Shown: positions 5,567-6,399 of the stretch, in pieces
Layout: each line of letters opens with the position of its first letter
How positions within the stretch are numbered: the stretch's first letter is position 1
IMG/VR virus record: IMGVR_UViG_3300029489_000102
Length of the DNA stretch: 64,000 nt
Strand: one strand, 5' to 3'
From: a virus
Notes under the pieces: generated by a model
Told to the model about the DNA's origin: nothing
The model's database searches: none
Seen by the model: only the letters and a program-made list of their open reading frames with translations
Program-made: the position numbers and the translations under genes

Positions 5567-5628
5567 AATAGACCGCACATTACAGTAGTTTATTGACATT
5601 TTCAAGGGTTTCTTGACAAAATCATTTC

Positions 5629-5657
5629 TTTACGGTACGCCCTCAATTTGGTATAAT
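5629..5657 (+). promoter_or_regulatory. sigma-70-type promoter (-35 TTTACG 5629-5634, 17-bp spacer, TGn-extended -10 TATAAT 5652-5657)
   Basis: Read directly from the sequence. Two additional TTGACA hexamers sit at 5593 and 5613. Confidence 0.55.
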
Positions 5658-5686
5658 TTATACTGGAAAAGCTGGATAGAGAAGCG

Positions 5687-5738
5687 TATTGCCGAGGCGG
5701 TCAGAAATGACTTCGCTTCGGCTTTTTTGTTGCGGCGA
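5687..5738 (+). terminator. intrinsic-terminator-like hairpin in the leader (CCGAGGCG ... CGCTTCGG + TTTTTTG), followed by a second hairpin GCGGCGA/TCGCCGC
   Basis: 8-bp stem with one G-U pair, 13-nt loop and a U-run, about 25-75 nt downstream of the predicted TSS. Candidate attenuator. Confidence 0.4.
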
Positions 5739-5994
5739 TTGCTTCGCCGCCAAAGCTGTGACTTCTCTGTCCGGCTTTTTACTTTTACATCAACCCAAGG
5801 TCTATCGACCGGGAACAAGAGGTGAGTTTTCATTGGGTCGCAAGAATAAGAACGGTCGTTCAAGACCTCATGTGAATAAATACATCAACCAGAAAGGGCG
5901 GCTGCTCCGCAAGCAGCGCACAGCCCGGACTGAAAAGTCTGCCCAGAAGGAAGCGTTGCGGCAGGACATACCGCAGCAGGAAACACCGCAGCAG

Positions 5995-6399
5995 TTGGTG
6001 CAGCGGTTTGAAATCTGGTTTGCCGAGCTGGGCGACCATTACGGCAGTTCCGTGCAGAGCGGCAGTCGCCCGGTGCTGGTCATCAGCAACGATGTGGCAA
6101 ACCGCTTCTCCAGCACCCTGACGGTGATCCCCCTGACCACCGTGCAGAAGAAGCTGGGTCTGCCCACGCACATCCAGATTGCAGAGGCAGACTGTCAGAT
6201 GATCAATGACCATGCGTATCTGCGCAACTCTGTCGCACTGGCAGAGCAGGTCACGACCATCGGAAAGAACGCCCTGCTGAACAAGCTGGGCAGCCTGACC
6301 TCTACCGCCAAGCAGCGGGAAGTGGAGCAGGCAATCGCGGTGTTCTTTAACATGGGCACTGCCGACACTACTACCAAGAAGGAGGCGAGAACGTGGTAG
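5995..6399 (+). CDS. PemK/MazF (EndoA-like) endoribonuclease toxin; start uncertain (TTG 5995 / GTG 5998; ORF open from 5689)
   Basis: FEIWFAELG...GSRPVLVISNDVANRFSSTLTVIPLTTVQKKLGLPTHIQI closely parallels B. subtilis EndoA (RPVLVIQNDIGNRFSPT...KLPTHVEI). No antitoxin ORF upstream. Confidence 0.65.
   Translation: MVQRFEIWFAELGDHYGSSVQSGSRPVLVISNDVANRFSSTLTVIPLTTVQKKLGLPTHIQIAEADCQMINDHAYLRNSVALAEQVTTIGKNALLNKLGSLTSTAKQREVEQAIAVFFNMGTADTTTKKEARTW

Follow-up and report, generated by a model that had tools for sequence, protein, structure and literature searches.

Here we describe a gene of the PemK/MazF endoribonuclease family, together with the promoter and structured leader RNA that precede it, in a 64,000-nucleotide (nt) stretch of viral DNA (IMG/VR record IMGVR_UViG_3300029489_000102; the whole stretch is called the window, and all positions refer to it). 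MazF toxins have nearly always been treated as halves of toxin–antitoxin pairs. The widespread human-gut prophage lineage to which the window belongs, found in Gemmiger, Faecalibacterium, Lawsonibacter, Clostridium fessum and others, keeps an intact MazF that has no partner and is catalytically plausible. A preliminary description of the window, made from the sequence alone, had pointed to a solitary toxin of this kind. The gene, its parts and their positions are as follows.

5833–6399, plus strand: MazF-like gene, 188 amino acids (aa), TTG start (from homolog alignment and a start-codon survey)
5819–5825, plus strand: ribosome-binding site GAGGTGA of the MazF-like gene, 8 nt before TTG 5833
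5833–5907, plus strand: basic N-terminal arm MGRKNKNGRSRPHVNKYINQKGRLL (from conservation in homologs)
5908–5994, plus strand: hypervariable Q/P/S/T-rich linker (from length variation among homologs)
6001–6348, plus strand: PemK/MazF endoribonuclease domain (from Pfam and PDB matches and phrog_1936, 'MazF-like growth inhibitor')
6067–6069, plus strand: R79, aligned to R25 of Bacillus subtilis MazF
6136–6138, plus strand: T102, aligned to T48 of B. subtilis MazF

The proposed MazF/PemK identity was confirmed by a hidden Markov model search (PF02452, PemK_toxin; expectation value (E) 1.4e-20, 74 bits against a cut-off of 23.1), and the best sequence matches in the PDB were Bacillus MazF/EndoA (E 3e-16, residues 55–170 of the 188-aa form). 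Over these residues the protein resembles Firmicute MazF/PemK proteins, with about 40% identity to B. subtilis MazF (EndoA/YdcE) and with the LPTH and EQ motifs kept. Searching Pfam at E up to 0.01 returned only PemK_toxin and a sub-threshold match to DUF1719, and no ToxN-type family. The roles of MazF residues have been described (PMC8634880), and R25 and T48 of B. subtilis MazF, which serve in catalysis and RNA binding, correspond here to R79 and T102. Across 82 homologs each of the two is conserved to at least 90%, serine standing in for threonine in some, and the equivalents of G18, P26 and N36 are retained as well. Since the catalytic residues are kept, the MazF-like enzyme is probably active as an RNase. 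Beyond the domain it departs from B. subtilis MazF in having no MazE upstream, in its extra 54-aa arm and linker, and in its place within a phage lytic operon, where it overlaps a primase gene.

The gene is shorter than first proposed. The preliminary description had taken the open reading frame (ORF) 5689–6399 (236 aa) as the gene, behind a leader of ~330 nt. In a search of 5.8 billion proteins we found 271 homologs, and with the query started at TTG 5833 nearly all of the full-length ones were 180–195 aa long and aligned from residue 1. Gene calls of 225–240 aa like ORF 5689–6399 were confined to the window's own lineage, their extra residues crossing the structured leader. Because homologs start at the position of 5833, the longer frame runs too far in the 5' direction; translation begins at TTG 5833, preceded by its GAGGTGA site, and the untranslated leader measures about 170 nt (~5664–5832). 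The in-frame basic stretch that had been counted as a leader element is instead coding sequence, namely the conserved N-terminal arm. A GGAGGTGA-type site lies 7–9 nt 5' of the start codon in all 61 unique loci, the codon being ATG in 46, TTG in 12 and GTG in 3; the weak TTG/GTG starts (15 of 61 loci) would fit a low dosage of the toxin.

The gene is kept intact in more than 100 homologs, among them a 187-aa protein of Gemmiger formicilis (P0004), which NCBI labels a PemK/MazF family toxin. Truncated, frameshifted or deleted alleles are occasional. Those seen in metagenomes include proteins P0121–P0125, P0095, P0096 and P0099; one allele, on a 95-kb contig, combines R79C with a frameshift, and in another a deletion joins the N-terminal arm to the primase. 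Such alleles are consistent with the occasional loss of a costly gene.

Judged by the alignment of homologs, the protein is made of three parts: the basic arm (MGRKNKNGRSRPHVNKYINQKGR), the hypervariable linker and the PemK/MazF domain. Residues G2, R3, N7, V14, N15, K16, Y17 and I18 of the arm are invariant in 82 sequences, the pattern MGRKNKNGRSRP(+/-5 aa)HVNKYINQKGR is almost invariant down to homologs of 48% identity, and (M/L/V)GRKN(K/R) followed by a basic run is still present in relatives of 37–40% identity. Synonymous differences are seen at the flanking His, Val, Asn, Lys, Gln and Gly codons, which argues that the arm is selected as a peptide. The fused basic N-terminal domain that had been offered as one possibility is therefore real, conserved and selected at the protein level. 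An exhaustive phmmer search of 1.84 billion representatives with residues 1–34, a short query of limited reach, returned three proteins, all of this MazF family, so that within this limit the arm is without detectable relatives; a word-indexed search with the N-terminal 58 aa returned nothing beyond truncated or frameshifted alleles of the same gene. The arm may bind nucleic acid or the ribosome, inhibit the enzyme in cis, or act as a degradation tag. An AlphaFold2 (AF2) model of the 188-aa protein with 82 homologs had a predicted local distance difference test score of 46.5, too low to judge whether the arm docks on the domain. Arm and linker together range from 49 to 77 aa among homologs, and the tandem repeat GCAGGAAACACCGCA (15 nt x 2.3, at 5961–5994, coding for QQETPQQ-type linker) probably drives these differences in length.

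No conventional antitoxin accompanies the gene. The absence already reported holds when the ORF cut-off is lowered to 20 aa, with no MazE/PemI-like ORF next to the MazF-like gene in the window. Neighbouring genes carry no antitoxin domain in Pfam, NCBIfam or PADLOC, and tblastn with five approximate MazE/PemI sequences, a rough test, gave only noise. The adjacent, co-transcribed MazE/PemI, AbrB/SpoVT or ribbon-helix-helix (RHH) antitoxin that marks a type II system is likewise missing from the same layout in more than 50 loci, drawn from IMG/VR contigs of 45–85 kb and from genomes of Gemmiger, Faecalibacterium, Lawsonibacter, C. fessum, Acetatifactor and others. The gene immediately upstream is separated from the MazF-like gene by a promoter and hairpins, and the two thus share no operon.

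The virulent Lactobacillus phage Maenad (gp061) and gut phages of Candidatus Heliusvirales also have solitary MazF-like genes, with no Pfam-recognisable MazE/PemI, AbrB/SpoVT or RHH-type neighbour. They are examples of PHROG 1936/35650, 'MazF-like growth inhibitor', families that offer a precedent in annotation: phage MazF domains with no recognisable antitoxin, encoded among early or replication genes. Those proteins are armless and 120–130 aa long; their genes lie within operons that lack this promoter and leader, uncoupled from primase. That such genes recur in other phages, one of them virulent, favours the earlier suggestion of an unprotected phage nuclease. Literature searches brought up no functional work on MazF-like proteins of phages, nor on MazF with an N-terminal extension. 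A phage RNase with a toxin fold and no antitoxin does have a precedent in T4 RegB, which is sequence-specific and is used in the phage's own expression programme. It would be a functional analogue: RegB differs from the MazF of the window in its RelE/YoeB-like fold and in coming from an early gene of a virulent coliphage.

The enzyme could instead be a self-inhibited single-chain toxin, its arm inhibiting or switching the domain in cis, as in CapRel, and serving prophage defence or abortive infection. A short conserved peptide, a variable flexible linker and a catalytic domain are typical of tethered regulatory peptides, and a separate antitoxin was not found. The arm is strongly basic, however, whereas the MazE tails that fill the RNA groove of MazF are acidic; moreover, the gene lies in a replication and lytic operon with primase, rather than in a moron or a defence island, and PADLOC returned no matches. 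We therefore regard self-inhibition as unlikely.

Control of the gene may rather lie in the region between it and the upstream gene, which contains the following elements.

5629–5657, plus strand: promoter with a -35-like TTTACG, an invariant GTAC, a 17-nt spacer and an extended -10 TGgTATAAT (from site scoring and conservation)
5593–5622, plus strand: second promoter-like site, TTGACA-18-CAAAAT (from site scoring)
5664–5832, plus strand: 5' leader RNA (from its fold; start placed at ~5662–5666)
5666–5780, plus strand: three-way junction, with basal stem P1 (5666–5688 with 5757–5780) around P2 and P2b (predicted fold)
5691–5728, plus strand: P2, a 13-bp hairpin (5691–5722) followed by U6, resembling an intrinsic terminator (from sequence and consensus fold)
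5732–5750, plus strand: P2b, hairpin GCGGCGA/TCGCCGC (from the fold; window's lineage only)
5781–5795, plus strand: U-rich tail and UACAUCAACC motif, directly 3' of P1 (from comparison of leaders)

The two promoter sites have the highest promoter scores in the first 20 kb. The one at 5629–5657, the sigma-70-type promoter predicted from the outset, recurs at the homologous position in relatives (loci L005 and L026), and the region from its -35 to about +20 (ACT(G/A)GGAAAA...) is conserved across lineages whose proteins are ~48% identical. The TTGACA of the second site is kept, by eye, only in some close relatives (L013, L014, L018/L020); no counterpart of that site was seen in distant lineages when these were inspected by eye.

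The predicted fold of the leader has an energy of -77.4 kcal/mol (z = -5.8 relative to shuffled sequences). Its terminator-like hairpin with a U-run and its second 7-bp hairpin, both noticed before, correspond to P2 (5691–5722 with U6) and P2b, and the duplicated unit TGACTTC..CGGCTTTTT is also genuine, its copies being the 3' arms of P2 and P1. A simple terminator scanner misses P2, the loop and bulge of which exceed its limits. In the window UUUUUACUUUUACAUC comes directly after the three-way junction; at the position of P2b, L001 and L021 have other inserts. Between lineages the 3' arm of P1 changes only by A/G exchanges opposite U, so that pairs are preserved, and one pair of P2 runs through the series G-C, G.U and A-U (L013, L015). 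As a separate observation, the inverted repeat of P1 reaches back into the -10 region (5648–5684 with 5762–5798, 70% complementarity).

In the largest related lineage the leader consists of one 20–25-bp hairpin, then UUUUUACAU, then a GC-rich hairpin with a U-run. Insertions and differences in stem register between lineages defeated RNAalifold on a MAFFT alignment of all leaders; a covariance model was built from nine leaders of one sub-lineage, and 27 leaders were aligned to it. Paired cells made up 91.7% of this alignment, compared with 38–56% in slid controls, and none of 500 shuffles matched the observed pairing values. The outer helix of 15 pairs, the counterpart of P1 in that lineage, was 99.2% paired, with 10 of the 15 pairs changed on both sides. 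Because the leaders are relatives of one another and their alignment follows the model, these statistics are supportive and do not amount to a formal test. The covariance model, coming from another sub-lineage, fails to detect the window's own leader lineage; the structure in the window therefore rests on its own fold, on close relatives and on a by-eye comparison of stem arms.

Mean fold energies were -38.1 kcal/mol for the sense and -25.5 kcal/mol for the antisense strand, and G.U pairs made up 17% of all pairs, which points to an RNA structure of the coding strand and not to a DNA palindrome. The same sense-strand stability and G.U pairs rule out the leader as a palindromic replication origin, for which there is a better candidate after the primase gene. 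A hairpin with a U-run also stands between promoter and ribosome-binding site in distant lineages whose leader sequences are unrelated. The leader is thus conserved in relatives, as an RNA structure with covariation across more than 40 related phage loci and as hairpin plus U-run in distant lineages, and the latter pattern is the one expected of a terminator or attenuator. No Rfam family reached its gathering score in the window, and the leader constitutes an undescribed RNA structure with covariation support. Two other candidates were discarded: a minus-strand match to the Rfam family PAGEV is put down to chance (20 bits against a gathering score of 61), and a 32-aa ORF in the leader of L005 is taken to be spurious, since it lies inside hairpins and has no counterpart in the window's ORF list.

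Two further elements bear on what the leader might do, namely the gene that precedes the promoter and a comparable cassette in other, unrelated viral contigs.

5129–5566, plus strand: upstream gene, 145 aa, probable Ltr-type activator (sigma-70 region 4/DUF1492-like; predicted fold)
1877–1990 of L133, also in L134, and 8348–8367 of L149 (minus strand): related cassette with TATAAT-N5-ACTRGGAAAA start, A/G-rich 5' segment and terminator-like hairpin

The AF2 model of the 145-aa protein is very confident and resembles phage sigma-70 region 4/DUF1492 proteins. None of its 91 homologs has a precomputed Pfam domain on record, and BLASTP against the DUF1492 protein of L133 gave no match; the family is possibly a new branch of the Ltr late-activator superfamily. 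DUF1492 (LtrB) and sigma70_r4 (LtrA) proteins have been shown experimentally to be late activators encoded just 5' of the promoter they control (PMC3753634). Ltr/RinA control of this type resembles the present arrangement, in which a small gene with a predicted sigma-region-4/DUF1492-like fold stands just 5' of a promoter heading a long rightward operon. The promoter/start motif TATAMTWTAWACTRGGAAAA was found in other viral contigs too. In L133 and L134 it lies between a DUF1492 gene (E 2.7e-10) and terS-like, HNH and terL genes, and the leader is matched weakly by the covariance model (23 bits, E 0.004); L149 has a similar arrangement, with the cassette before terS. Because a related promoter and leader follow a DUF1492 gene and precede terS there, we read the cassette as a general gate and not as an RNA dedicated to MazF. 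TATAAT-N5-ACTRGGAAAA cassettes may represent a late-promoter class common to Clostridia phages.

Our preferred explanation, to which we assign a probability of roughly 0.5, is that the leader is a gate for a middle/late operon rather than an antitoxin specific to MazF, and that the MazF is a lytic-cycle endoribonuclease that does not need one. The locus would be the start of a middle/late transcription unit in a ~60-kb temperate phage of gut Clostridia, and its promoter (5629–5657) would probably be switched on by the product of 5129–5566. In the lysogen the promoter would be inactive, or most transcripts would stop at the leader hairpins with their U-runs; in lytic growth the activator would be made, and transcription would then reach the MazF and primase genes. 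The first gene behind the gate would be a MazF-family endoribonuclease, translationally coupled to the primase-helicase, that may reshape the RNA pool, whether it cuts host mRNA, processes phage transcripts or does both. An antitoxin would not be needed because expression would be confined to lytic development. Cultured isolates of C. fessum and F. intestinale carry the MazF-like gene as lysogens, and this intact gene is thus tolerated in the prophage state. The plus strand carries almost all ORFs from 1 to ~61 kb, so that the unit headed by MazF could feed a very long operon.

Known systems offer partial parallels. Lambda PR'-tR', which yields 6S RNA, and the type III system ToxIN both make a short RNA by default, and their downstream genes need read-through. 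Like them, the window has a terminator-like element at short range after the promoter; unlike lambda, no Q-like antiterminator was identified, and unlike ToxIN, there are no ToxI-like repeats and the toxin belongs to another family. If the leader is indeed a gate, the locus would be a clear case of a toxin-fold RNase that a phage keeps in check through transcription and termination, where an antitoxin is usual, and a tractable system for the role of phage 'MazF-like growth inhibitors'. The leader and the sigma-region-4/DUF1492-like gene together suggest how middle or late transcription may start in these uncultured phages.

Several observations weigh against this explanation. The 145-aa protein is assigned as an activator by fold only: Foldseek template-modelling scores reach 0.70/0.81 at E of only 7e-4 to 2e-2, and sequence matches to activator families are all sub-threshold. 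The hairpins lie 3' of the promoter, unlike the characterised Ltr order (ltr gene, terminator, promoter, terS), and the promoter is close to the constitutive sigma-70 consensus. In L133 and L149 the promoter stands directly 5' of terS, as in Ltr control, whereas in the window MazF and primase come first. A putative large terminase ORF, assigned from its size and position, lies at ~26534, some 21 kb downstream, and with terminase genes at that distance the unit may be 'middle' rather than 'late'. Where B. subtilis MazF has E20 and G6, the window's protein has V74 and F59, and the cleavage motif is therefore not inferable from the sequence. TACAT occurs 39 times on the coding strand of the phage genome against 38.5 expected; since it is not avoided, the idea of a UACAU-specific enzyme that would leave the phage's own RNA uncut is unsupported. 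Finally, the basic arm and the conserved UACAU motifs are left unaccounted for by a gate.

UACAU is the motif cleaved by the MazF of B. subtilis, S. aureus and C. difficile (PMC8634880). Of 41 unique leaders, 38 have UUUUUACAU directly behind the long hairpin. The 10-mer TACATCAACC occurs twice in the window, once in the leader tail (the element at 5781–5795) and once inside the gene (5881–5890). The Tyr codon of HVNKYI is TAC in every one of 41 unique sequences, whereas the fraction of TAC in the background is 0.56 and neighbouring codons vary, so that UACAU is fixed at codons 17–18. UACAU is missing from the leaders of the L009/L012/L060 lineage; distant lineages have no KYI codon motif, and most of them carry a different motif behind the hairpin. 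The conserved sites suggest self-processing or a type III-like RNA decoy.

On such a reading, the terminated, structured leader RNA would itself be the antitoxin or decoy, the arginine/lysine-rich arm docking on the RNA and the enzyme perhaps cutting the UACAU 3' of the long stem and staying bound to the product. We consider this very unlikely, and equally so the accompanying idea that UACAU after the stem and at codons 17–18 lets the enzyme process and limit its own message. The order of promoter, structured RNA, terminator and toxin is that of type III systems, and the UACAU in the leader, its second copy at codons 17–18, the 10-mer common to leader and gene, and a basic arm confined to this MazF family would all fit. 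Indeed, a hairpin with a U-run separates RNA and toxin gene in every lineage examined. But tandem RNA repeats are absent from 5560–5832, the sole array being that of the linker coding region (5961–5994), and the toxin is of PemK/MazF type rather than ToxN/CptN/TenpN type. Elsewhere the related cassette stands before genes that do not encode toxins (terS), the other phage MazF-like genes have no such leader, the motifs fail in the lineages named above, TACAT is not depleted, and the E20 equivalent, which is relevant to specificity, is changed. The suggestion of an attenuator or RNA antitoxin in the preliminary description is thus supported in its first half, by a hairpin and U-run between promoter and ribosome-binding site in every lineage, together with covariation, and not in its second, since a related cassette stands before terS elsewhere and there is no tandem-repeat array. 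We conclude that a role of the leader as RNA antitoxin is unlikely; were it true, the leader would be a new kind of RNA antitoxin or decoy, type III-like in logic, for a toxin of type II fold.

Whatever the function of the leader, the MazF-like gene is joined to the gene that follows.

6379–6399, plus strand: primase ribosome-binding site AAGGAGG (6379–6385), primase start GTG 6393 and MazF stop TAG (6397–6399) (from the sequence)
6393–8801, plus strand: primase-helicase (NrS-1 polymerase helix-bundle domain, D5_N, DUF5906, Pox_D5; from domain search)

The primase start given earlier, 6393, is correct, its GTG overlapping the MazF stop codon. Stop and start overlap or abut in the great majority of the 61 unique loci; in a few distant ones (e.g. 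L110, L066) there is no clear GGAGG within the 36 nt inspected. A MazF homolog lies directly 5' of the primase in 56 of 56 related loci with upstream sequence, down to 51% primase identity, and the gene order SNF2 helicase, small ORFs, ~145-aa ORF, leader, MazF, primase, S-adenosylmethionine (SAM) synthetase, HNH is shared by the more than 50 loci.

Such strict co-occurrence, with a translationally coupled junction, might indicate a pair in reverse order, in which the overlapping primase-helicase or another conserved neighbour binds and neutralises MazF. Toxin-first orders are known, for example in higBA. Yet the N-terminus of the primase is an ordinary primase-polymerase domain with no added module, the neighbours tested have no antitoxin-like domain, and the gene order may reflect just one phage lineage; we hold this pairing to be highly improbable.

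The coupling could also mean that the MazF fold has been domesticated as a replication accessory, which would process transcripts or primers near the origin or tune primase mRNA without inhibiting growth. The invariable link to primase agrees with this, as does the location of a candidate origin right after the primase gene, and the basic arm could tether the protein to nucleic acid. There is also a precedent in Kid, which acts on the repA mRNA of plasmid R1. Against it, MazF-like genes lie away from primase in other phage lineages, and we regard a replication accessory as doubtful.

The 470-nt gap between the primase and SAM-synthetase genes (8801–9273) has an AT-rich core at ~8990–9110, flanked by CCGGCAACAGACC(G/A)GCAAC(G/A)GAAAAA-like units at ~8918–8950 and ~9143–9170, features that make it a candidate replication origin beside the primase gene. 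Towards the end of the window (62000–64000) the GC content falls from ~0.5 to 0.39, the skews reverse sign and ORFs turn to the minus strand, probably marking the prophage end or a junction with the host. The most depleted 5-mers in 1–62000 are GGACC/GGTCC and CCTGG/CCAGG (23–38 observed against 60–111 expected, z -5.9 to -10.1), suggesting that GGWCC and CCWGG restriction sites are avoided. A ParB-methyltransferase fusion is also encoded, at 11652–12920.

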